Positions 2,549-63,026 of a stretch of DNA of 64,000 bases are shown one piece after another. The notes below the pieces were generated by a model. It was not told where the DNA came from and did not search any database. It saw only the letters and a program-made list of their open reading frames with translations. Position 1 is the stretch's first letter. Every line of letters starts with the position of its first letter. This stretch comes from a virus (taxonomy: Duplodnaviria; Caudoviricetes): the IMG/VR virus record IMGVR_UViG_3300042914_002678, one strand, 5' to 3'. The position numbers and the translations under genes were made by a program.

Positions 2549-2620
2549 GGGACTGTCGCCTATTGGTTAAGGCCCACTGCTTATAACGGTGTGAACGGAG
2601 TTCAATTCTCCGCAGTCCTA
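2549..2620 (+). tRNA. tRNA-Ile(TAT)
   Basis: Acceptor GGGACTG/CAGTCCT, anticodon arm CACTG-cTTATAa-CGGTG, T loop GTTCAATT. Confidence 0.9.
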
Positions 2621-2728
2621 TTGACAATCTAAGTTAAATACTTTATGATTGTCTCGTGAGTAACAGAGGGTCTAAACCTTGTGTAATCCTCACACACCTC
2701 CTCTAAGAGAACTTATAGGAGGTCTTAT

Positions 2729-2803
2729 GGGCACGTAACTCAGCCTGGACAGAGTATCCGACTTCTAATCGGTTAGCCGTAGGTTCAAATCCTACCGTGC
2801 CTG
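2729..2803 (+). tRNA. tRNA-Arg(TCT)
   Basis: Acceptor GGGCACG/CGTGCCT, anticodon loop cTTCTAa, T loop GTTCAAAT. Confidence 0.93.
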
Positions 2804-2857
2804 TTTTGAATAAAACAACTTAAAAACATAAATAATAATGTAATATCCATTAATAAT

Positions 2858-3316
2858 ATGGAATGTGTAACCTGCGGAAAACAACATAATAATCCAAAAT
2901 TTTGTAGTAGAAGTTGTGCCGCTAAATGGACTAATGTTCAACACCCTAAAAGGAAAAAAATTAATTTTCCAAATAAATGCGAAATGTGTGGTGTAGAAAT
3001 TGATTATAGAAGTAAAAGATGTATAAAATGTTGTGGTTCTTTGGGTGATATGACATTAAAAGAAGCAATTTATGAAAAACATCACAAGTCTTCTGCTTTT
3101 GCTTTAATTAGGACAAGAGCAAGAGCAGAAGGAAAAAAACTTGGATTTACCAAATGTTGCAAATGTGGGTATGATAAACATATAGAAGTTGCCCACATTA
3201 AACCAATTTCTTCTTTTAGTGAAGAGGTTATGATAAGTATTATTAATTCCAAAGAAAACATAATGCCTTTGTGCCCAAATTGCCACTGGGAATACGACCA
3301 TAACCTTTGGACTTGA
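2858..3316 (+). CDS. Free-standing HNH homing endonuclease within tRNA cluster
   Basis: Several CxxC Zn motifs plus EVAHIKPIS...NIMPLCPNCHWEYD HNH core; CATAAATA late-promoter-like motif at 2827. Confidence 0.85.
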   Translation: MECVTCGKQHNNPKFCSRSCAAKWTNVQHPKRKKINFPNKCEMCGVEIDYRSKRCIKCCGSLGDMTLKEAIYEKHHKSSAFALIRTRARAEGKKLGFTKCCKCGYDKHIEVAHIKPISSFSEEVMISIINSKENIMPLCPNCHWEYDHNLWT

Positions 3317-3347
3317 CATAATCTCAGAACTAGTGTAATATATAAAC

Positions 3348-3490
3348 TGATAGAGGGTAAGTCACTGTTATATCCTTATGAGGTATATCACACTTACTCC
3401 ATCAAATGTAGGAAGTGCAACACCTCTCGCTGGTTTAGACTGGATGATGTGAAAGGTGATTCTGTCCGCACATAGAAATCCCTCCTACCA
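3348..3490 (+). ncRNA. Structured RNA, candidate manA RNA motif
   Basis: Follows promoter TTGACA(3313)-17-TAATAT(3336); stems GGTAAGT/ACTTACT, TATATC/GGTATA, GTAGGA/TCCTAC; directly precedes a tRNA as described for cyanophage manA RNAs; family assignment from memory only. Confidence 0.5.
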
Positions 3491-3494
3491 TTAT

Positions 3495-3567
3495 TCCCTT
3501 ATAGCTCAATTGGCAGAGCACGGAGCTGTTAACTCTGGGGTTCCTGGTTCGAGTCCAGGTGGGGGAG
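3495..3567 (+). tRNA. tRNA-Asn(GTT)
   Basis: Acceptor TCCCTTA/TGGGGGA, anticodon loop cTGTTAa, T loop GTTCGAGT. Confidence 0.92.
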
Positions 3568-3657
3568 TTGGAAGTGATCCTGCGATAACCTCAAGAGCAC
3601 TCCTTCCAACTAAAACCTAGAATATTTCTAGGTCAGGGGGATGGCCTCCCCTGTTTC

Positions 3658-3729
3658 GCCCTTGTAGCTCAGTGGTAGAGCAACGGTTTTGTAAACCGTT
3701 GGTCGCTGGTTCAAATCCAGTCGGGGGCT
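3658..3729 (+). tRNA. tRNA-Thr(TGT)
   Basis: Acceptor GCCCTTG/CGGGGGC, anticodon arm ACGGT-tTTGTAa-ACCGT. Confidence 0.93.
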
Positions 3730-3807
3730 TGACATAATACTCATTATGTCTTATACTTTTCCTATCCGTGTGAAGGAAATGTGCTGGGAGAGAAATCTCC
3801 CACTTTT

Positions 3808-3878
3808 GCGAATGTGGTGTAGCGGTAACATCCCATCCTTCCAAGTTGGTGTCACGGGTTCGATCCCCGTCATTCGCT
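3808..3878 (+). tRNA. tRNA-Gly(TCC)
   Basis: Acceptor GCGAATG/CATTCGC, anticodon loop cTTCCAa; promoter TTGACA(3729)-17-TATACT(3752). Confidence 0.93.
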
Positions 3879-4008
3879 TATAAACCGTAAAAACCGAAAA
3901 GGCTTGACTGATCCCAAAGGAACTGTTAAGATAAATACCGTGAAGTGATAGTGCCTCAACTACTCGCATAGTCACACATTATGTCCTATAGAACAAAAAC
4001 AAATTTTT

Positions 4009-5502
4009 ATGAAACTCAAACAACTGATGCTTGCACCTGTTGCTCTGGGAATGGTTGCTCCTGTTGCTGCGAATGCCGCAGACCTTAACATGGCAGCAGT
4101 CAACCAATACTCCACTGAGCAGGTTACAAGCGTTTCGCAACTTTCTGATGTGCAACCCACTGACTGGGCATATCAGGCACTCAGCAATCTTGTAGAGCGT
4201 TATGGTTGTGTTGCTGGTTATGCAAACGGCACCTTTGGTGGTGGTAAAGCAATGACCCGTTATGAAGCAGCAGCACTTCTGAATGCTTGCCTTGACCGTG
4301 TAACCGAAGTTACTGATGAACTCGGTCGTCTTGCAAATGAGTTCCGTGATGAACTGACTGTAATTCAAGGTAAAGTTGCAAGTCTGGAAACCAAAGTTGG
4401 TGCTCTGGAAGCAACTCAATTCTCTACCACAACTAAACTGAAAGGTGAAGCATCTTTCGTTCTTGGTGGTGTTGATAATGCTTGGGTTCCTGGTAAGGAT
4501 TCCAGTACCAATGTAGGCAATACTGCCTTCAACTACGATCTTCGTATCAATCTTGATACTTCTTTCACTGGAAAGGATCTTCTTCGTACTCGTCTTCGTT
4601 CTGGTAACTTCTCCAGTCAACCTTTTGGTTCCAGTTCTTCACTCTTTAAACTGGACAAAGCAGAAGGCACTTCTGATTCTGTAAAGATTGACCGTCTGTA
4701 CTACAGCTTCCCTGCTCTTGCTAAGGGTGTAACTCTGACTGCTGGTGCTCTGGTTCGTAATACTGAGATGACCTGGATTCCTTCTGCTTATAAGTCGGAT
4801 GTTCTGGACTTCTTCCAACTTGCTGGTGCTCCTGGTGTCTATAACAAGGCAACTGGTGCTGGTTTCGGTGCTCAGTGGTCACAAGGTAAGAAAGGTTTCG
4901 TTGCTGGTCTGAACTATGTTGCTCAGAGTGGTGCTGATTCTACCAAAGGTGAGTTTAATGAAAAGGGTGCTCTGAACACTCTTGCTCAGATTGGTTATCG
5001 TACTCCTCAGTGGGGTGCTGCTTTCGGTTATCGTTACGGTACTGAAGGCACCCGTGTTCGCACCTTTAATGGTGTTCTGGGTAGTTCTGGTGCTCTTGCT
5101 CCTGGACAAACCTCTAATGGTTATGCTCTGAGTGCTTACTGGCAACCTAAGAAGTCTGGTATTATTCCTTCTGTGAGTGGTGGATATGGTTGGAACACCG
5201 TAAGCTTGAATGCTGAAGGTGCAGCAACTCCTACTGGTGCTACCGATTCTCAAACTTGGTATGCTGGTCTTCAGTGGTCTGATGTATTCGCCAAGGGTAA
5301 TTCTGCTGGTTTCGCTATCGGTCAACCTGGAAATGCAGAAGGTCTTGAAAAGGATGCAACAATGTGGGAACTGTTCTATAAGTATCGTGTAAGCGATAAT
5401 ATTACTGTTACTCCTGCTGTGTTCTATGTGTCTAACAATCAAGCACTTGCAGATACTTCTTCCAACTATGGTGGTGTAATTCAGACGACTTTCCGTTTCT
5501 GA
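4009..5502 (+). CDS. Cyanobacterial outer-membrane porin (SLH domain + OprB-type barrel, Som family)
   Basis: Signal peptide, SLH motif SDVQPTDWAYQALSNLVERYGCVAGY...RYEAAALLNACL, coiled coil, TQFSTTTKLKGE, C-terminal TTFRF; promoter TTGACT(3904)-17-TAAGAT(3927). Confidence 0.93.
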   Translation: MKLKQLMLAPVALGMVAPVAANAADLNMAAVNQYSTEQVTSVSQLSDVQPTDWAYQALSNLVERYGCVAGYANGTFGGGKAMTRYEAAALLNACLDRVTEVTDELGRLANEFRDELTVIQGKVASLETKVGALEATQFSTTTKLKGEASFVLGGVDNAWVPGKDSSTNVGNTAFNYDLRINLDTSFTGKDLLRTRLRSGNFSSQPFGSSSSLFKLDKAEGTSDSVKIDRLYYSFPALAKGVTLTAGALVRNTEMTWIPSAYKSDVLDFFQLAGAPGVYNKATGAGFGAQWSQGKKGFVAGLNYVAQSGADSTKGEFNEKGALNTLAQIGYRTPQWGAAFGYRYGTEGTRVRTFNGVLGSSGALAPGQTSNGYALSAYWQPKKSGIIPSVSGGYGWNTVSLNAEGAATPTGATDSQTWYAGLQWSDVFAKGNSAGFAIGQPGNAEGLEKDATMWELFYKYRVSDNITVTPAVFYVSNNQALADTSSNYGGVIQTTFRF

Positions 5503-5523
5503 TAATAACTACATAGTGTAAAC

Positions 5524-5559
5524 TGGGGGGTTGACAAAACCCCCTTTTTAGTGTATTAT
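5524..5559 (+). terminator. Intrinsic terminator overlapped by sigma70 promoter
   Basis: GGGGG-TTGACAAAA-CCCCC + T run; TTGACA(5531)-17-TATTAT(5554). Confidence 0.7.
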
Positions 5560-5580
5560 AAGTAACAAGTTAAAAGTTTT

Positions 5581-5736
5581 ATGTCTCTTATTTCCCAACG
5601 CGATAGAGAAGTTGCTCTTGAAGCACTTGATTTTTATCTCTTCAATAAAAAATTTGATTTTACTGAAGAAAAAAGAATGGAACTAAATGCTTTGATTAAT
5701 TGGATCAAACTAGAATACACAAAGAATGAAAATTAA
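5581..5736 (+). CDS. Small hypothetical protein (51 aa)
   Basis: MSLISQRDREVALEALDFYLF...; follows promoter and overlaps next ORF; not in track. Confidence 0.6.
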   Translation: MSLISQRDREVALEALDFYLFNKKFDFTEEKRMELNALINWIKLEYTKNEN

Positions 5737-5890
5737 TCTATGGTTTTGTAAGGATATGAATCAGTGGCGTTGGACTTTGACTGATGATCACCGTCCAATC
5801 ATTAAACAAGAATCAGGTCAAAGAGAAAATCTACGTGATGCTATGAATGATGTAGCAAATACTGTAGAATATATGATGAGTCAATATTGA
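5726..5890 (+). CDS. Small hypothetical protein (54 aa)
   Basis: MKINLWFCKDMNQWRWTLTDDH...; fills the gap before tRNA-Val; not in track. Confidence 0.65.
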   Translation: MKINLWFCKDMNQWRWTLTDDHRPIIKQESGQRENLRDAMNDVANTVEYMMSQY

Positions 5891-5897
5891 CTTTATT

Positions 5898-5970
5898 GGG
5901 CGATTAACTCAGCGGTTAGAGTGTCTGCTTTACACGCAGAAAGTCCGCAGTTCGAATCTGCGATTGCCCA
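5898..5970 (+). tRNA. tRNA-Val(TAC)
   Basis: Acceptor GGGCGAT/ATTGCCC, anticodon arm TCTGC-tTTACAc-GCAGA. Confidence 0.93.
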
Positions 5971-6016
5971 TTATAAATATTCAAAAAAGATTGAAGAAGT
6001 ATAACTGATTATAACA

Positions 6017-6274
6017 ATGGAAAATTTAAGAATCAGATGTCGATCCTGTGGTAAGGAGTTAGAGGGACATTCTACGAAAACTATAACTTGTGGTTGTCCA
6101 AATATGGCAACAATTCGTGGAGGAGTTATTTCAGCTGTTGACTTATCCTCTGTTGTTATGCTAAACTTTGTAAATAATAAATCAAAGTCTGGTGTTCTCA
6201 CTAACGAAGACCTTGCCTTTCAAGAGGCAAGAAGACAACGTAAGGTAAGACGTTTAGATTTTGAAGTCCGCTGA
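6017..6274 (+). CDS. Zn-ribbon hypothetical protein
   Basis: CRSCG...CGCPN motif; TATAAATA at 5972. Confidence 0.7.
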   Translation: MENLRIRCRSCGKELEGHSTKTITCGCPNMATIRGGVISAVDLSSVVMLNFVNNKSKSGVLTNEDLAFQEARRQRKVRRLDFEVR

Positions 6275-6285
6275 GGACTTATTTT

Positions 6286-6372
6286 GGAAGCGTGGCAGAG
6301 TCCGGTTTATTGCGCTTGTCTTGAAAACAAGTGAGGGTAACACCTCCGTTAGTTCAAATCTAACCGCTTCCG
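6286..6372 (+). tRNA. tRNA-Ser(TGA)
   Basis: Acceptor GGAAGCG/CGCTTCC, anticodon loop cTTGAAa, long variable arm GAGG-GTAACA-CCTC. Confidence 0.92.
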
Positions 6373-6485
6373 TTACAAATATTACAAAATTTTAGATTTT
6401 TTTAATCTATATTTTTGTATCAACACAAACTTGACAAAGTAGAATTACTGACTAATATAATTAGTAATATTCAACCTAAAACCTT

Positions 6486-6635
6486 ATGGATCAGCACACC
6501 TATCTTAATTGGGTGAAGATCAAAGAAACTTTTGAAACGTCTGGTAATACAGATAATATGTTTTATAAGAGAGCAGTTGAAATCGTAAAAACACGAAAAG
6601 ACCCTCTTGCAAAGTTTCTTGGAGATGAAAAGTGA
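6486..6635 (+). CDS. Small hypothetical protein (49 aa)
   Basis: MDQHTYLNWVKIKETFETSG...; downstream of TTGACA at 6431; stop overlaps next ATG. Confidence 0.6.
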   Translation: MDQHTYLNWVKIKETFETSGNTDNMFYKRAVEIVKTRKDPLAKFLGDEK

Positions 6636-6838
6636 TGGAACCTTTTGATGTTGATTATGTAACTCGTACAGAAGTACAGGAGATGATTGATGCCGCTATC
6701 CGAAGGCATAATCGTAATGCTTCCATTATTAGTATGTGTGTTGGTTGGGTGGTTCTTGCTTTATTTGCTGAGGGACTTTTAAGACTTGTAGGGGTAATTC
6801 CTCCACTACTTCCATGGCTCAAAATTACTCTCCAATAA
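6635..6838 (+). CDS. Small membrane protein
   Basis: Hydrophobic SIISMCVGWVVLALFAEGLLRLVGVIPP segment. Confidence 0.7.
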   Translation: MEPFDVDYVTRTEVQEMIDAAIRRHNRNASIISMCVGWVVLALFAEGLLRLVGVIPPLLPWLKITLQ

Positions 6839-7104
6839 TATTTTTAGTTCCTTGGTTTGTGCTTATGGGTATTGCAATTTCTATGATTGCACAAGGTTGG
6901 ATGATTATGAACGCTCACCATGGATACTCAAAAAGTCCAAAAGTGAAGCACCCAGAAATGAACGATGTTAAGGTAGGAGATCCGTTACTAGTGGTGAGAT
7001 TTACAGACGAAGATATTGAACAACTTCAAAGAAGAGTTTTACAACAAAAAATAGAAGAACTATTTGAAGAACCATCAACTTACGAGGACGAGGAAGATGA
7101 TTAA
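6814..7104 (+). CDS. DUF2973-like membrane protein
   Basis: N-terminal TM helix then KHPEMND..GDPLLVVRF motif. Confidence 0.6.
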   Translation: MAQNYSPIIFLVPWFVLMGIAISMIAQGWMIMNAHHGYSKSPKVKHPEMNDVKVGDPLLVVRFTDEDIEQLQRRVLQQKIEELFEEPSTYEDEEDD

Positions 7105-7192
7105 AGCAATAATATCAACAATTATTCTTTTTTCTTCTATTGGACTTTTTATACATTGGGGACTTACACACGCATATCCAGAGGTTTTATGA
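7097..7192 (+). CDS. NdhQ-like single-TM peptide (31 aa)
   Basis: MIKAIISTIILFSSIGLFIHWGLTHAYPEVL; TM helix ending IxWxLxxAY as in cyanobacterial NdhQ (recalled ...LIWWALHTAYA); stop overlaps gnd ATG. Confidence 0.5.
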   Translation: MIKAIISTIILFSSIGLFIHWGLTHAYPEVL

Positions 7193-8223
7193 AAGTAGGA
7201 TTGATTGGATTAGGTAGAATGGGCGAAGGTATGTCTCGCCGCATGATGAAGGCAGGAATAGAAGTCTGGGGTTATCGGAGGAATTATGAAAAAGCAAACG
7301 AAGCATACGAAAGTGGGTATGTTAACGGCGTTACAACTACTATTGAAAATCTTGTTAAAGTAGTTAAGCAAAATAAAAATGGAGGAACACAACCAGGAAT
7401 CTTTCAGATGGTTGTACCTGCCGAAACCGTAGAGGAGACGATCAATGAGTTACTACGATATTGTGGTGAAGGAGATATTATTATTGATCATGGCAATAGC
7501 AATTTTAAAGACAGTCGGAAGAGAGCAGAACGCCTGGCAAAGTTGGGTATCCAATATATTGATTGTGGCACTAGCGGTGGTGTTTATGGTTTGGATCGTG
7601 GATACTGTCTTATGGTTGGTGGTGGAAATACTGCAGTCGCCACTTGTTCGCGCATTTTTGATGCCCTCGCTCCAGGAATCAACGCTGCCCCCAGGACTCA
7701 ATTTAACTCGGACGTAACTTCTGCAGAGTTTGGTTGGTTACATTGTGGTGGACCTGGTGCCGGACACTTTGTAAAAATGGTTCATAATGGTATTGAATAC
7801 GGTATAATGCAAGCATATGCTGAAGGTTTCGATATTTTAAAGAACGCTAACGCAGGTTCTCAGTATGTTAAAGAAGGAGATGCTGAGGTTGCTCCAATGG
7901 CAGACCCAGAAAGTTATTGTTATGATATTGACGTTGCTGAGGTTGCTGAGTTATGGCGTCGTGGTAGTGTGGTTGGGTCTTGGTTACTCGATCTTACTGC
8001 TGATGTGCTACGCAGGGATGGTAGCCTTAAACAGTTCTCTGGAGGCGTATCCGACAGTGGTGAGGGTCGTTGGACTGTTTCTGCCGCTGTGGATCTGGGG
8101 GTTCCCGCTCCTGTTATTACTACTGCCTTATTTGAAAGATTTAACTCACGCAATCTCGGATCATTTGGAGCAAAGATCTTAAATGGTATGCGTTATATGT
8201 TTGGGGGACATCATGTTAGGTAA
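7189..8223 (+). CDS. gnd: 6-phosphogluconate dehydrogenase (decarboxylating, short type)
   Basis: MKVGLIGLGRMG Rossmann motif, IDHGNS, DCGTSGG, GHFVKMVHNGIEYG, SDSGEGRW, RYMFGGH; ATG 7189 preferred. Confidence 0.97.
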   Translation: MKVGLIGLGRMGEGMSRRMMKAGIEVWGYRRNYEKANEAYESGYVNGVTTTIENLVKVVKQNKNGGTQPGIFQMVVPAETVEETINELLRYCGEGDIIIDHGNSNFKDSRKRAERLAKLGIQYIDCGTSGGVYGLDRGYCLMVGGGNTAVATCSRIFDALAPGINAAPRTQFNSDVTSAEFGWLHCGGPGAGHFVKMVHNGIEYGIMQAYAEGFDILKNANAGSQYVKEGDAEVAPMADPESYCYDIDVAEVAELWRRGSVVGSWLLDLTADVLRRDGSLKQFSGGVSDSGEGRWTVSAAVDLGVPAPVITTALFERFNSRNLGSFGAKILNGMRYMFGGHHVR

Positions 8224-8332
8224 AGCACTTATTTTTATTTCTATTCCTTTTGTACTGACTACACTGTATTTTGGAACACGAGGAGGATACTATGACTCCA
8301 AAGACTATAAGGGAAATGGAACCGCACATTAA
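8213..8332 (+). CDS. ndhP: NDH-1L subunit NdhP (39 aa)
   Basis: MLGKALIFISIPFVLTTLYFGTRGGYYDSKDYKGNGTAH; one TM helix plus FGTRxGxYDxxxYxGNGxAH C-terminus matching cyanobacterial NdhP; not in track. Confidence 0.85.
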   Translation: MLGKALIFISIPFVLTTLYFGTRGGYYDSKDYKGNGTAH

Positions 8333-8519
8333 GCAAAGATATAATTTTGCAATGTCTGCATTTTCAAGAATGCTTGGGATAAGATCCGCTTCTAATGACA
8401 TGCATATTAAGCAGTTCTGTATTGAATGGTCATACTGGGATGTGAGTGCTCCTTTGTCAGGTCTTAATGAGGTTGATCAGTATTTTTATTATGAATATAA
8501 GAATTGGAGAGGAAGATGA
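8316..8519 (+). CDS. Hypothetical protein
   Basis: In frame with track ORF 8271..8519; ATG 8316 chosen because the upstream part overlaps ndhP. Confidence 0.6.
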   Translation: MEPHIKQRYNFAMSAFSRMLGIRSASNDMHIKQFCIEWSYWDVSAPLSGLNEVDQYFYYEYKNWRGR

Positions 8520-8635
8520 TTTTTCACGTAGTAGAAACACTTGCAAATAGTCCAATTTGGTTAGGACTTTGTGGATTTGGAATAGTTGTGGTTCCTATTA
8601 TGGGAATTGCTTTTATACATAATAACATAAAGTAA
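8516..8635 (+). CDS. Small membrane peptide (39 aa)
   Basis: MIFHVVETLANSPIWLGLCGFGIVVVPIMGIAFIHNNIK; ATGA overlap; not in track. Confidence 0.55.
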   Translation: MIFHVVETLANSPIWLGLCGFGIVVVPIMGIAFIHNNIK

Positions 8636-8644
8636 AGTAAAGAT

Positions 8645-9079
8645 ATGGCGACAATTACGTTAGCAGTTACAGCACCTTCTATTGGTAGTGAATGGACTGT
8701 TCAATTTACTGCGGACTCTTCAACAACAATTAAAACTATAACTGGGTTTTCAATTAGTGCCACAACTCCTAGTTTACCAAGTTTATTTTCAGTGTCTTCT
8801 GTAAATGGATATGACGGAAGTGGAGTTCAGTATGTAACTTGGAGATCTACAAGTCCAGCTGGTCAGCATCCAACTTCTGGATGGAGTATGGACATTTGGA
8901 ATCAAGCTTTTTATGAAGACATTATTACTTATAATGGTAATGTTGGTAAAGTATGGTCTGATGTGAATGGAGTAACTTATAGTTTAAATCCTAATAAGTG
9001 GAGTTTAATTTATAATTATGGTAGTTTATATGCTCCAGTATTTACGAAAGGTGGCACATTGACAGTAACAGTTACTTGA
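8645..9079 (+). CDS. Hypothetical Ser/Thr-rich protein
   Basis: 144-aa ORF with no recognised motif. Confidence 0.6.
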   Translation: MATITLAVTAPSIGSEWTVQFTADSSTTIKTITGFSISATTPSLPSLFSVSSVNGYDGSGVQYVTWRSTSPAGQHPTSGWSMDIWNQAFYEDIITYNGNVGKVWSDVNGVTYSLNPNKWSLIYNYGSLYAPVFTKGGTLTVTVT

Positions 9080-9115
9080 CAAAATTTATTACTTATGTTA
9101 CTATATTATAAATTA

Positions 9116-9189
9116 CGGAATGTAGCTCAGTTTGGTAGAGCACTCGCTTTGGGAGCGAGATGTCGCAGGTTCGAATCCTGTCATTCCGA
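9116..9189 (+). tRNA. tRNA-Pro(TGG)
   Basis: Acceptor CGGAATG/CATTCCG, anticodon arm CTCGC-tTTGGGa-GCGAG. Confidence 0.94.
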
Positions 9190-12979: not shown

Positions 12980-13414
12980 ATGGCGACAAGAGAACAAAAG
13001 TTAGAAGCGAAAAGACGCTACTATCAAAAGCATAAAAACAGATTAAATGAGGAATCAAGAGAACTCAATACCAGATTGAGATATGAAAAGAAAAACTTTA
13101 TCATAGAAAATCTTGGATCCAAGTGTTGTAAGTGTGGAACTACTGATTGTCTAGAAATAGATCACATCAATCCTGGACTTAAAAAAGATCAAAGATGTCT
13201 TTATGTTTGTTCTTGGGATAGGATAAAAAGTGAAATGGATAATCTCCAACTTCTCTGTAGTTCCTGCCACCAAGAAAGATCTCAGTTGCAAAAAGATGCT
13301 TCATGGTTTTATTTTAAAAATCTTTCTTTAGAAGAACAAAATAATCTAATGGAGAAATTTAAAAGAGAAGGTTCTACTTTACCTTCTTGGTGCCCGCAAG
13401 ATAAGGCACAATAA
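12980..13414 (+). CDS. HNH endonuclease
   Basis: CCKCG..DCLEIDHINP...NLQLLCSSCH; TATAAATA at 12951. Confidence 0.85.
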   Translation: MATREQKLEAKRRYYQKHKNRLNEESRELNTRLRYEKKNFIIENLGSKCCKCGTTDCLEIDHINPGLKKDQRCLYVCSWDRIKSEMDNLQLLCSSCHQERSQLQKDASWFYFKNLSLEEQNNLMEKFKREGSTLPSWCPQDKAQ

Positions 13415-13420
13415 AAATTC

Positions 13421-13495
13421 TTGCTGGTGCGGATGGGGAATTCTTTCTCCGCCTGGTTTCTAATTTCCAGTCAAAGAATTGGTGGCGAGCCTGAG
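13421..13495 (+). ncRNA. wcaG RNA motif
   Basis: GGTGCGGATGGG..CCGCCTGGTTTC..CCAGTCAAAG..GTGGCGAGCCTG; stems GCGGA/TCCGC, CTGG/CCAG, CTAATT/AATTGG; close upstream of gmd-fcl(wcaG). Confidence 0.7.
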
Positions 13496-13500
13496 TTATA

Positions 13501-61220: not shown

Positions 61221-61547
61221 ATGGGTAAGCATTATCTTCTTAATCTTTATGAATGCTCATTCGTTCATTTAAACGATGAGCATTTTCTTATTGATCTATT
61301 AGAAAACGCTGCGATTGCCAGTGGAGCAACTGTTTGTCAAACTATTTTTAAGAAGTTTGATCCCCAAGGTGTAACGGTAATTTGTTTATTGTCCGAGAGT
61401 CACATTAGTATTCATACCTGGCCAGAAGAAGGTAAAGCTGCTTGTGATGTGTATACCTGTGGAGATTGCAATCCTAAAATTGGATGTGATATTATTATTG
61501 AACAACTTAACTCTTCACGTCACACTTTAAGTTATATTGAACGTTAA
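61221..61547 (+). CDS. speD: S-adenosylmethionine decarboxylase proenzyme
   Basis: GKHYLL..L, PQGVT..LLSESHISIHTWPE, DVYTCG. Confidence 0.95.
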   Translation: MGKHYLLNLYECSFVHLNDEHFLIDLLENAAIASGATVCQTIFKKFDPQGVTVICLLSESHISIHTWPEEGKAACDVYTCGDCNPKIGCDIIIEQLNSSRHTLSYIER

Positions 61548-61626
61548 AACAAAATTCACTTTTAGTTTTCCGGATAGGGGGAAAAATTTTCGGCAAAAAT
61601 TTCAATCCCCTAAGATTTTATAAAAT

Positions 61627-61642
61627 TGTAACAAATATTACA
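61627..61642. promoter_or_regulatory. NtcA-type box
   Basis: TGTA-ACAAATAT-TACA = tGTA-N8-TACa, 8 nt upstream of the -35 of TTGCTA(61651)-17-TATAAT(61674). Confidence 0.55.
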
Positions 61643-61684
61643 ATTAAACCTTGCTATATAAATGCAATAGGTCTATAATGACCT

Positions 61685-61783
61685 TACGTTCATCTGGAAA
61701 TCAGACGGAAGTAAGCCGACGCGGAACGGATCGTTCATTCGCTATTTGCAAATAGCGAACGCAAACGCCGACTGAAGGAACGC
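61685..61783 (+). ncRNA. Glutamine riboswitch (glnA RNA motif)
   Basis: P1 CGTTC/GAACG, P2 TCTG-GAAAT-CAGA, CGGAAGTAAG...TGAAG E-loop strands; expanded P3 with GAACG/CGTTC and TTCGCTATTT/AAATAGCGAA hairpins. Confidence 0.85.
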
Positions 61784-61814
61784 TCTTTAACCTAAACCAT
61801 TAAGGAGAACCCTA

Positions 61815-61946
61815 ATGTCAAAAGTAGTATATCGTGGTGTTGAATATGACACCGAAGTGCGTAAGCAAGAGCAAGCGCAGCAACAACCTCAACAATACAA
61901 CGAAACCTATCGCGGTGTTAAGTTTGTAAAGGAGGGGCACAAATGA
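61815..61946 (+). CDS. DUF4278 micro-protein (43 aa)
   Basis: MSKVVYRGVEYD...TYRGVKF double YRGV motif; AAGGAG RBS; not in track. Confidence 0.8.
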   Translation: MSKVVYRGVEYDTEVRKQEQAQQQPQQYNETYRGVKFVKEGHK

Positions 61947-62044
61947 ACACTTACTTCGTTCGTTACTTAAAGAAAAAAGCAAAGAAGGAAACCCTTCTCA
62001 AAATTGCACAACTGAATATGGCAAAGCAACCTCAAGTTGCTTGA
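61943..62044 (+). CDS. Basic micro-protein (33 aa)
   Basis: MNTYFVRYLKKKAKKETLLKIAQLNMAKQPQVA; ATGA overlap and GGAGG RBS; terminator 62048-62074 follows. Confidence 0.6.
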   Translation: MNTYFVRYLKKKAKKETLLKIAQLNMAKQPQVA

Positions 62045-62101
62045 TATAAAGGAGGGTTGATTCCCTCCTTTTTTCATAAATATCTAAAAAGATCAAGAAT
62101 A

Positions 62102-62785
62102 ATGAGGACCTATAAAGAATTTGTTTATATTTTAGAGCAACAGACTGGTGCTAATTTAATGTTTACTAAAAGACTCGGAAGTAGTGGACTTCCAGGATCT
62201 ACAGCAGTTACTGGTTCTGTTCAAGGTGGAAGACCTGGAGGGACTCAGGTTTCTGCAACAGGAACTTTGGGTAGGGGGACTGTATCTGGTCAAGGCGATA
62301 AAATAAATCAAGGTATAACTAAAGCTATAGAAAATCCTGGACAAGCAGCAAGTACTTCAACAATTAGAAAAGGTGCTTTTGGATCATTAAGTGCTAATGT
62401 AAGTGGTGGTGGAGCACCGAAACCAGCACCAAAACCAGTACCAAAACCACCTACACAACCAATAAAACCACAATCAGGACAAAAAATACAACCTCCAACA
62501 AAACCAACTCCACCAGTCGTAGAGAAACCATCACAGAAACCAACAGTTCCTAGTCTGACTGCTAGAGGATATACTGACGATAGAAATAATCCTTATCCTG
62601 GTTCTATTGAACGTGCAGGTCAACTAGCATCAGATTCACCTGACCCAGCAATTAGAGCACAAGCTGGACAAGACTATCAAGCAATGAGATCTCTTCAAAC
62701 ACAATTTAAAAATGAAAGACTTACTCAAAGCACTGGCGTTAAACCAGTAGTTAAACGATCTGATGGCACCTACGGAGTTCAATAG
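62102..62785 (+). CDS. Low-complexity (Gly/Pro/Thr/Gln) protein with capsid-targeting-like N-terminus
   Basis: MRTYKEFVYILE; CATAAATA at 62075. Confidence 0.65.
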   Translation: MRTYKEFVYILEQQTGANLMFTKRLGSSGLPGSTAVTGSVQGGRPGGTQVSATGTLGRGTVSGQGDKINQGITKAIENPGQAASTSTIRKGAFGSLSANVSGGGAPKPAPKPVPKPPTQPIKPQSGQKIQPPTKPTPPVVEKPSQKPTVPSLTARGYTDDRNNPYPGSIERAGQLASDSPDPAIRAQAGQDYQAMRSLQTQFKNERLTQSTGVKPVVKRSDGTYGVQ

Positions 62786-62849: not shown

Positions 62850-63026
62850 ATGGACAGAGACAAACTAAAACTGATTGTCCGTAATCTTGAACTCTTGGTT
62901 GATTCTCTCAAAGCAGAGGTTTATTCTGATAAAACTGTTTACAAATATACAGAACCAGAAGTAAGAAAAAGACCAATTTTAGATTACGACGAAATTTTTG
63001 AGGATTCTGATTTAGATGACCAATAG
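62850..63026 (+). CDS. Small hypothetical protein (58 aa)
   Basis: MDRDKLKLIVRNLELLVDSLKAEVYSD...; not in track. Confidence 0.65.
   Translation: MDRDKLKLIVRNLELLVDSLKAEVYSDKTVYKYTEPEVRKRPILDYDEIFEDSDLDDQ

Follow-up and report, generated by a model that had tools for sequence, protein, structure and literature searches.

A stretch of 64,000 nucleotides (nt) from the virus record IMGVR_UViG_3300042914_002678 (Duplodnaviria; Caudoviricetes), referred to here as the window, carries close to its 3' end a short cassette in which an NtcA-type box, a sigma70-type promoter, a leader resembling a glutamine riboswitch, two small open reading frames (ORFs) and an intrinsic terminator follow one another on one strand. 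The window derives from a freshwater T4-like cyanophage (cyanomyovirus). With a probability of roughly 0.7, the cassette is a self-contained transcription unit, conserved among cyanophages, that ties expression of the two peptides to nitrogen status in the infected host cell. Comparison with related phages shows the predicted fold of the leader to be one nested double aptamer, and not two units in a row. An earlier sequence-only reading had listed a box, a promoter, an aptamer leader, two coupled micro-ORFs and a terminator, each of which is present, in a combination far beyond what chance would yield; its anatomy and its parallel with the host gifB gene have stood, while its proposal that the peptides tune glutamine synthetase (GS) finds no support in the sequence. 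The elements of the cassette are:

61628–61641, plus strand: NtcA-type palindromic box GTA-N8-TAC; with the flanking T and A, tGTA-N8-TACa at 61627–61642
61651–61679, plus strand: sigma70-type promoter; -35 TTGCTA at 61651–61656, 17-nt spacer, -10 TATAAT at 61674–61679
61687–61782, plus strand: nested double glutamine aptamer, outer core (from RF01739 half-matches, covariation, pair counts and energies)
61722–61765, plus strand: inner, circularly permuted core at the tip of P3, lacking loop E
61783–61807, plus strand: expression platform; anti-Shine-Dalgarno (anti-SD) strand CUCUUUAA at 61783–61790 pairs with UUAAGGAG at 61800–61807 (8 base pairs in folds)
61815–61946, plus strand: ORF1, 43 amino acids, a DUF4278-family peptide with a double YRG motif
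61943–62044, plus strand: ORF2, 33 amino acids, strongly basic and helix-type; ATGA overlap with ORF1 and its own Shine-Dalgarno (SD) sequence, GGAGG, at 61931–61935
62048–62074, plus strand: intrinsic terminator; stem 62051–62056 with 62063–62068, extended by A/U pairs, and U-run at 62069–62074

Relatives of the cassette were collected by scanning viral contigs for the junction CGGAACG-N2-6-CGTTCAT, which yielded at least 119 stretches. The matches listed, together with the window and three isolates, form the locus set used here, in which at least 86 loci have a glutamine-aptamer 5' core beside the junction; 81 of these could be parsed completely and underlie all counts out of 81. An alignment of the 22 distinct hairpin-class leaders among the loci listed is referred to as A1. 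Statements about relatives below apply to the matches and loci listed.

A predicted nested double glutamine aptamer

The leader had been called a glnA riboswitch with a P3 helix expanded into a multi-hairpin domain. In a permissive scan with the Rfam model RF01739, two adjacent matches were obtained, at 61687–61728 (21.4 bits) and 61730–61786 (33.8 bits), along with a weak match to Glutamine-II at 61729–61770 (15.7 bits). The riboswitch call thus falls below the gathering threshold as a single family member, and holds in that the two sub-threshold matches are halves of one nested structure, the RF01739 model being unable to span the 44-nt insert in P3. The expansion of P3 had been seen correctly, and is itself an aptamer-like core.

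The 5' conserved half (unit 1) consists of CGUUCA, P2 and ACGGAAGUA, and has neither the 3' GAAG nor a P3 of its own; the 3' half (unit 2) contains GAAGGAACG, and has AAA where AAGUA is expected. The hallmarks of a glutamine-I aptamer, namely P1 CGUUC/GAACG, the P2 hairpin, the junction ACGGAAGUA, the 3' GAAG of loop E, and P3, are all found in an outer unit assembled from both halves. The segment of unit 1 that follows AAGUA is complementary to the segment of unit 2 that precedes GAAG and the two covary, from which it follows that P3 and loop E are formed jointly by both units. Covariation in P3 comprises 20 distinct strand combinations (for example AGUCG/CGACU, GGACGG/CCGCCC and AGCCGACA/UGCCGACU), and P2a, as well as P3, covaries in alignment A1. 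The proposed helices and junctions are:

61687–61691 with 61778–61782: outer P1
61693–61697 with 61701–61705: outer P2a
61705–61708: outer junction ACGG
61709–61713 (AAGUA) with 61774–61777 (GAAG): outer loop E
61714–61721 with 61766–61773: outer P3
61724–61728 (GAACG) with 61732–61736 (CGUUC): inner P1', closed by the 3-nt linker 61729–61731
61738–61746 with 61751–61759: inner P2b
61759–61765: inner junction ACGCAAA
G61708–C61783, plus strand: outer linchpin; G61708 is equivalent to G23 of the solved glutamine-I structure
G61729–C61762, plus strand: inner linchpin; G61729 is the first base after the middle GAACG

The outer unit would thus be a glutamine-I three-way junction (P1, P2a, loop E and P3), the distal P3 of which opens into a second, inner junction, with each core holding its own long-range linchpin pair. 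Across A1, 94.0% of the cells of the nested structure are paired, and its covariation of 0.250 compares with 0.076 in shuffles, none of 500 reaching so high. The outer linchpin (alignment pair 27–106) is paired in 22/22 leaders as C-G in 13 and G-C in 9, and the inner linchpin (pair 49–85) likewise in 22/22, as G-C in 20 and C-G in 2. Nested linchpins form in 81/81 (outer) and 79/81 (inner) of the parsed loci. The window itself has G at position 23 of unit 1 and C at position 23' of unit 2, with C following the last GAACG and G following the middle one. Nearest-neighbour energies are -20.2 kcal/mol for the nested and -15.4 kcal/mol for the side-by-side structure, and the unconstrained minimum free energy (MFE) structure is also nested; the single-sequence fold of 61680–61815 gives a non-native MFE structure (z = -2.08) and does not settle the topology. 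A covariance model of the family, R1, scores the window at 117.7 bits and, as the window is in its training set, this shows only that the window holds one copy.

That the leader instead contains two ordinary glutamine-I riboswitches side by side, pseudo-cooperative and each binding and acting independently, is what the two adjacent Rfam matches would suggest. Glutamine aptamers in tandem are known from Weinberg 2010 and from a 2022 review (PMC2864571, PMC9481103), and a true pair of two complete aptamers is present in the cellular locus L219. Two complete aptamers would each need a P3, a loop E and a linchpin, whereas in the phage leader P3 and loop E are common to both units: unit 1 is missing the 3' strand of loop E, unit 2 the 5' strand, and the covarying P3 lies between them. 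Linchpins drawn for the side-by-side arrangement both pair in only 13/22 leaders of A1, and in 60/81 parsed loci each, failing in all 21 informative loci. The linker is also just 3–6 nt long and there is one expression platform. We therefore regard independent tandem riboswitches as highly improbable.

A further question is whether the inner junction binds a second glutamine. In solved structures the glutamine pocket consists of C1:G59, the triple G2:C58-G22 and the linchpin, both in glutamine-I and in glutamine-II, which has no loop E (PMC6698751); the linchpin is G23-C60 in glutamine-I and, reversed, C19:G41 in glutamine-II (PMC6698751, PMC6212724). The pocket positions are retained in both phage cores, and no variation is seen in the inner ACG and A residues, even though the search pattern did not include them. 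In terms of its sequence, the inner three-way junction (P3, P1' and P2b) is a circular permutation of the outer ligand-binding core, without loop E. It may nonetheless be that the leader is a single glutamine-I aptamer, its inner hairpins being a decoration of P3 or a platform for a protein. The inner unit has AAA/CG in place of AAGUA/GAAG, its P2b is in about half of the relatives a sequence-conserved palindrome, suggestive of contact with a protein or of a tertiary contact more than of a free helix, many relatives have an entire ORF within P2b, and some relatives are without the outer 5' half altogether. Set against this are the exact pocket nucleotides of the inner junction (the CG of CGUUC, ACG, and the CG of GAACG), the covariation of its linchpin, and the ability of glutamine-II to bind glutamine without loop E; a mere spacer would not be expected to retain the sequence of a P1 core, a point that is biased by the search pattern. 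On balance we think a single binding site unlikely, and binding of glutamine by the leader as a whole is predicted from its retained pockets.

A fuller proposal would be that of a two-site glutamine sensor, in which a permuted aptamer lacking loop E sits in the P3 of a glutamine-I aptamer, the two pockets are coupled through the shared helix and act cooperatively on a single platform, and the output is a phage-specific module of two peptides that would affect nitrogen assimilation in the host by way of some target distinct from the known interface of the inactivating factor IF7 with GS. We put this forward tentatively, at somewhat less than even odds.

Tandem glutamine riboswitches (Weinberg 2010, PMC2864571; PMC9481103; L219) resemble the phage leader in having two cores per leader, but are described as independent, complete units, whereas in the phage P3 and loop E are shared, one core is nested and permuted within the other, and one platform serves both. 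Among tandem riboswitches, the 2022 review lists 157 doublets for glutamine, treats them as pseudo-cooperative, that is, as independent units, and does not mention a nested form (PMC9481103). The tandem glycine riboswitch offers a functional analogy only: it also has two structurally coupled cores feeding one expression platform, but with another ligand and fold, and with side-by-side aptamers docked by tertiary contacts rather than nested through a shared helix. The nested layout was not found in the riboswitch literature searched, although a prior description in Ames & Breaker 2011 or Ren et al. 2015 is possible. Riboswitches have been thought rare in phages, and McCown 2017 reported two only, both of them cyanophage glutamine aptamers (PMC5473149). 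The annotated glnA riboswitch of phage S-CREM1 (99 nt, 44 bits; PMC9964418) is a homologue of window 61685–61786; in the S-CREM1 paper (PMC9964418) and in McCown 2017 (PMC5473149) a single glnA motif is listed, and the topology, the promoter box and the downstream peptides are not described there.

Further features of the aptamer domain vary among relatives. About half of the hairpin-class relatives retain the sequence of the P2b stem (UUCGCUAUU..AAUAGCGAA, window 61739–61758) and not just its pairing, and in L035, L042 and L054 this palindrome is located in P2a instead; the stem may bind a protein or make a tertiary contact. In approximately 49/81 related leaders P2b is replaced by a conserved ORF of about 50–68 codons that starts right after CGUUCAUCC, reads through the 3' aptamer core and ends ..W-D-A-N-D-stop; examples are L001 (S-SRM01, 1562–1729), L012, L013, L019, L022, L284 (S-SSM4) and L286 (S-T4). 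Translation of an ORF inside the riboswitch would unfold the sensor. The outer 5' half, with the first CGUUCA and P2a, is missing from some phages, including L285 (P-HM1, 440–480), L004, L009, L025, L038, L047, L066, L069, L077 and L093, in which an upstream ORF extends as far as the ACGCAAGUA element; P-HM1 retains just the 3' half-core, after the ORF PHM1_180. These loci are reduced or rearranged versions of the cassette.

Expression platform and terminator

The first base of the anti-SD strand is the outer linchpin residue, C61783, and its partner UUAAGGAG contains the SD sequence of ORF1, 7 nt before the AUG. The same arrangement of linchpin and anti-SD has been proposed for gifB of Synechocystis, where glutamine would turn translation ON (Klähn et al. 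2018, PMC6212724), and it is also present in the cellular gifB leaders L126, L139 and L142. The messenger RNA probably begins at the first base of the leader, which is about 100 nt long. By analogy with Synechocystis gifB, binding of glutamine would capture C61783, weaken the anti-SD hairpin and thereby turn translation of ORF1 ON, and translation of ORF2 would be coupled to that of ORF1 through its overlap with the ORF1 stop codon.

Transcription is predicted to end at the hairpin at 62051–62068 and the U-run that follows it, which bears out the terminator of the sequence-only reading: the fold has an energy of -15.9 kcal/mol (z = -3.78), and an equivalent hairpin with a U-run comes after the cassette in S-PM2, S-SRM01, S-CREM1 and P-TIM68.

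The NtcA-type box and the promoter

The perfect tGTA-N8-TACa box noted upstream of a sigma70 promoter was confirmed. The promoter fits the consensus at 10/12 positions and is predicted to start transcription near A61686, which places the centre of the box about 51.5 nt upstream of the start; the distance from TAC to the -10 element is 32 nt. The bare motif GTA-N8-TAC is not enriched in the window: 10.3 sites are expected and 16 are present, a number attained in 6 of 100 shuffles. The cassette site alone among the 16 fronts a sigma70-like promoter, and of the eight strong sigma70-like promoters in the window only that of the cassette has such a box. In relatives a perfect box lies 57–61 nt upstream of the first CGTTCA in 36/63 distinct promoter regions and 8–9 nt before a conserved TTGACT, with GTA and TAC retained and N8 variable; their -35 (mostly TTGACT) and -10 elements retain the 17-nt spacing. 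The significance of the box hence derives from its unique pairing with a promoter in the window and its fixed position in relatives, the bare motif alone proving nothing.

In NtcA-activated class II promoters, GTA-N8-TAC is centred near -41.5, about 22 nt before a -10 of the form TAN3T, and takes the place of the -35 element. The phage promoter departs from this geometry, as the earlier reading had correctly remarked in calling the spacing non-canonical: 32 nt, against N22, separate the box from the -10, and a -35 element is present as well. The geometry of gifA/gifB-type repression, with the box over the -10 or the start, is not found either, as the phage box is upstream of the -35; in the cellular gifB loci L126 and L142 the box overlaps the -10. 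Since the box fits neither the activator nor the repressor geometry, the sign of any effect of NtcA cannot be read from the sequence. Host RNA polymerase would read the near-consensus sigma70 promoter, and host NtcA, in response to 2-oxoglutarate, may modulate transcription through the predicted box.

Binding of NtcA is predicted from the motif, and the box may be something else, such as the site of another CRP-family regulator or of a phage-encoded dimeric regulator, or a promoter-upstream element unrelated to nitrogen. The departure from both NtcA geometries, the good -35 and -10 elements already in the promoter, and the lack of enrichment of the bare motif would all be consistent with this. 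Yet the box matches the NtcA consensus exactly, flanking T and A included, its variable N8 is typical of a dimer site, and its offset from the class II position is 10 bp, or one helical turn further upstream; it is specific to the cassette promoter within the window and, as at host loci, it is accompanied by a glutamine riboswitch and a DUF4278 gene. A role for the box outside NtcA control is thus the less favoured view, to which we give a little under one chance in three.

The -10 element lies inside a short palindrome, GGTC-TATAAT-GACC (window 61670–61683), the arms of which covary in relatives, as in GTGTTAGTATTAACAC and GGTATGCTAACATACC, with the -10 staying 17 nt from the -35. The palindrome would be upstream of the predicted start, and candidate explanations are a hairpin in read-through RNA or a feature acting at the level of DNA.

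The two peptides

ORF1 of the window scores 21.2 bits against PF14105, below the gathering cut-off of 25.3, and 53 bits against phrog_5049. PF14105 is matched by 26/27 relatives of ORF1 (best E-value 1.8e-13), and the ORF1 family profile aligns to the N-terminus of a real GS inactivating factor IF17 with 83% probability; these results support the DUF4278 assignment made by the sequence-only reading. Neighbours of ORF1 in the Atlas are DUF4278 clusters, and its 327 metagenome homologues are all unnamed. On these sequence comparisons, the ORF1 family is DUF4278. ORF2 overlaps ORF1 by ATGA at 61943–61946 and is strongly basic, in agreement with the description of two coupled micro-ORFs, the second basic. 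No Pfam, NCBIfam, PHROG or ESM Atlas match was found for it.

Codon differences between relatives fall mainly at third positions in both ORFs; for ORF2 compared with L024 there are 10 synonymous and 3 non-synonymous changes, with differences by codon position of 3/2/12. This bias implies that both ORFs are real coding genes, and the pattern of substitution is that of purifying selection. The ORF2 module has the consensus ..LN.LQLIKEQKQKE..R..AQL.. and is always accompanied by DUF4278. It takes three forms: a separate, overlapping ORF, as in the window; an N-terminal fusion to DUF4278 (23 loci; phrog_545); and a C-terminal fusion in S-CREM1, L085, L096 and L113. Since both orders of fusion are found in relatives, joint action of the two peptides is probable. 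Complex prediction for the ORF1 family with the ORF2 family returned a score of 0.00, which speaks neither for nor against binding.

The most likely role for the peptides, although putative, is in host nitrogen assimilation. A more specific version, to which the earlier reading inclined, is that they are phage versions of IF7/IF17, produced at high glutamine to switch off the GS of the host. The cassette has the control logic of gifB, in that an NtcA-type box and a glutamine riboswitch precede a DUF4278 gene; the ORF1 family resembles IF17 in its N-terminal part; and ORF2 is small and very basic, as inactivating factors are. Sullivan 2010 had moreover suggested that 2-oxoglutarate and NtcA are manipulated by cyanophages (PMC3037559). 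In IF17, however, DUF4278 is the N-terminal moiety, which aids stability and is dispensable for GS inactivation, and it is the IF7-like C-terminal moiety, with three arginines, that binds GS (PMC6316151). ORF1 covers just the N-terminal YRG part of IF17, and the IF7-like part is undetectable in it. ORF2 looks IF7-like by eye (basic, rich in Q, K and R, with a VG end), a likeness that profile comparison did not uphold: the phage helix module and the ORF2-family profiles showed no similarity to IF7-like regions from L142, L126 and L139 plus eight homologues (hhalign probabilities 0.09% and 0.15%). With no similarity to the IF7-like moiety, inhibition of GS is left without support in the sequence. 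In addition, picocyanobacterial proteins consisting of DUF4278 only have no demonstrated GS activity (PMC6212724, PMC6316151), and pairs of GS and inactivating factor are species-specific (PMC6316151). We consider a GS inactivator to be improbable, at about one chance in five.

In many marine relatives the DUF4278 gene is followed by a hydrophobic mini-ORF of about 30 amino acids (for example M.ALQV.GI.SL..VAF..LIYGE..LL.K), which replaces or comes after the basic-helix ORF (L022, L035, L041, L062 and L093, among others) and is absent from the window.

Points that weigh against a nitrogen-responsive cassette

Several observations count against the interpretation of the cassette as a nitrogen-responsive unit built around a nested sensor. 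At the Rfam gathering score (35 bits), RF01739 has no match in a scan of the whole window. P1 and P1' are invariant and thus offer no covariation, the invariance of P1' being partly built in by the search pattern, and the choice of topology is based on two single long-range pairs plus P3, a helix with two conserved mismatches, C.A and A.C. Ligand binding may fail in the inner core, which has no loop E. Downstream of the aptamer, relatives with a C-G-type linchpin have no obvious anti-SD; as their downstream sequence differs, the mechanism may vary between subgroups. The strong SD of ORF2 may make its control by the riboswitch partial, and the box is in neither of the known NtcA geometries and fronts a promoter with its own -35, so NtcA may be irrelevant.

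Relation to host and phage nitrogen-control systems

A glnA aptamer has been found upstream of DUF4278 genes in 25/28 cyanobacterial genomes, DUF4278 being part of IF17 (Klähn et al. 2018, PMC6212724), and this linkage lends weight to the parallel with host gifB that had been drawn from the sequence. Synechocystis sp. PCC 6803 gifB (PMC6212724; also L142 from Leptolyngbya and L126 from Halothece) shares with the phage an NtcA-type box, a glutamine-I aptamer in the 5' untranslated region, an anti-SD strand with the linchpin C as its first base, and, downstream, a gene that opens with a DUF4278 (YRG) module. The differences are nevertheless substantial. Cellular gifB leaders (L126, L139 and L142) have one aptamer with a simple P3 hairpin, whereas in the phage a second, permuted core is placed in P3; the cellular box lies over the -10, consistent with repression, and the phage box upstream of the -35; and IF17 is a protein of about 150 amino acids with an IF7-like, GS-binding C-terminus, in contrast to a 43-amino-acid DUF4278 peptide and a separate, unrelated basic helix. 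The phage cassette follows host gifB in its logic and departs from it in geometry.

Loci of the yfr6/PMM1846 type in Prochlorococcus MED4 (PMC6212724, PMC6316151) have a glutamine-II riboswitch, a short DUF4278-only protein and an NtcA motif nearby, and the inner core of the phage resembles glutamine-II in its C-G linchpin and absence of loop E. The host element differs in having a single pseudoknotted glutamine-II aptamer, an NtcA site over the transcription start and no partner helix peptide. In T4-like cyanophages, Sullivan et al. 2010 (PMC3037559) predicted NtcA promoters at intergenic GTA-N8-TAC sites, like the box found here, and proposed that they exploit host 2-oxoglutarate/NtcA signalling; no link to a riboswitch or to DUF4278 was made for those sites, while the present site belongs to one conserved cassette, in which its spacing is fixed and non-canonical.

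Distribution and genome context

At least 7 isolated cyanophages have the cassette: S-PM2, S-CREM1, S-SRM01, P-TIM68, S-CAM7, S-SSM4 and S-T4. The last four were found through similarity rather than the junction pattern, and have the identical junction. At the cassette locus, the nearest database relatives are Synechococcus and Prochlorococcus myoviruses, with the best match to S-SRM01 (83.7% identity, 70% of the query covered). In 401 sampled cyanobacterial genomes the junction pattern gave 39 matches, approximately the rate of a reversed-pattern control, and none of the 39 had aptamer features. A scan of cellular genomes with CGTTCA-N6-30-ACGSAAGTA was too loose: nearly all of its 120 stretches were chance matches and only 6 were true aptamers. 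Glutamine-I aptamers also occur outside the cyanobacteria, in L188 (a SAR86 single-cell contig) and L184 (an uncultured gammaproteobacterium); one of the two has an 83-nt P3 insert and lies upstream of a triple-YRG protein of 53 amino acids, and the other lies upstream of a 200-amino-acid secreted or porin-like protein.

Contigs from four freshwater RNA libraries (three studies) are 90–99% identical to the cassette and span the leader, ORF1 and the start of ORF2. They do not cover 61524–61647 or the region past about 62020, which is not evidence of missing transcription; as they derive from relatives of the cassette, come from libraries that may include DNA, and cannot reveal the transcription start, they are a weak hint of cassette expression.

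The phage was assigned to freshwater because its DNA recurs in many lake-water metagenomes, 14 runs containing at least half of the sampled words. A scan of the whole window with Rfam models found PhotoRC-II, a wcaG RNA and a group I intron, together with eight tRNA genes spanning window 2549–9189. The cassette is placed between speD (PF02675) and, further downstream, thyX (PF02511), and the gene order in S-PM2 matches that of the window: speD, leader, two small ORFs and thymidylate synthase. These other features are:

13388–13496: wcaG RNA, 73 bits
33439–33532: PhotoRC-II, 86 bits
34571–34801: group I intron, 81 bits
61221–61547, plus strand: speD, S-adenosylmethionine decarboxylase (PF02675, 117 bits), outside the unit and marking its 5' boundary

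Between speD and the box is an A/T-run motif, GGGGGAAAAATTTTCGGCAAAAATTT (window 61570–61615), a candidate terminator for the upstream gene; folding of this region is no better than that of shuffles. A similar A/T-run motif, GGGAAAAATTCCCGGCAAAATTTTTG, is found upstream of the cassette in the unrelated loci L011, L035, L080, L084 and L121. Directly 3' of the terminator, an ORF of 227 amino acids (window 62102–62785) is rich in G, S, T, P and K, has PKP repeats, and has no Pfam or PHROGs family match. It is followed by an acidic ORF of 58 amino acids (..LKLIVRNLELLVDSLKAEVYSD..DYDEIFEDSD.., window 62850–63026), a homologue of which stands directly 3' of the cassette in L039 and L055, so that the region downstream of the cassette is partly syntenic.

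Implications for cyanophage biology

The glutamine aptamer of phages can now be seen as part of a cassette that is widely conserved among cyanomyoviruses of lakes, estuaries and oceans, and that is carried by isolated phages with hosts in hand: S-PM2 and S-T4 on WH7803, S-CREM1 on CB0101, and P-TIM68 on MIT9515. The nested, permuted core would be a new architecture, of a layout that family scans split or miss, and it provides a direct test case for the rearrangement of aptamer cores. Nesting would be a compact route to a cooperative sensor; if this holds true, coupled pockets would sense glutamine cooperatively, in the switch-like manner of the glycine riboswitch, though by way of nesting. For the infection itself, the cassette suggests sensing by cyanophages of the two nitrogen signals of the host, 2-oxoglutarate via NtcA and glutamine via RNA, to time the production of two peptides.

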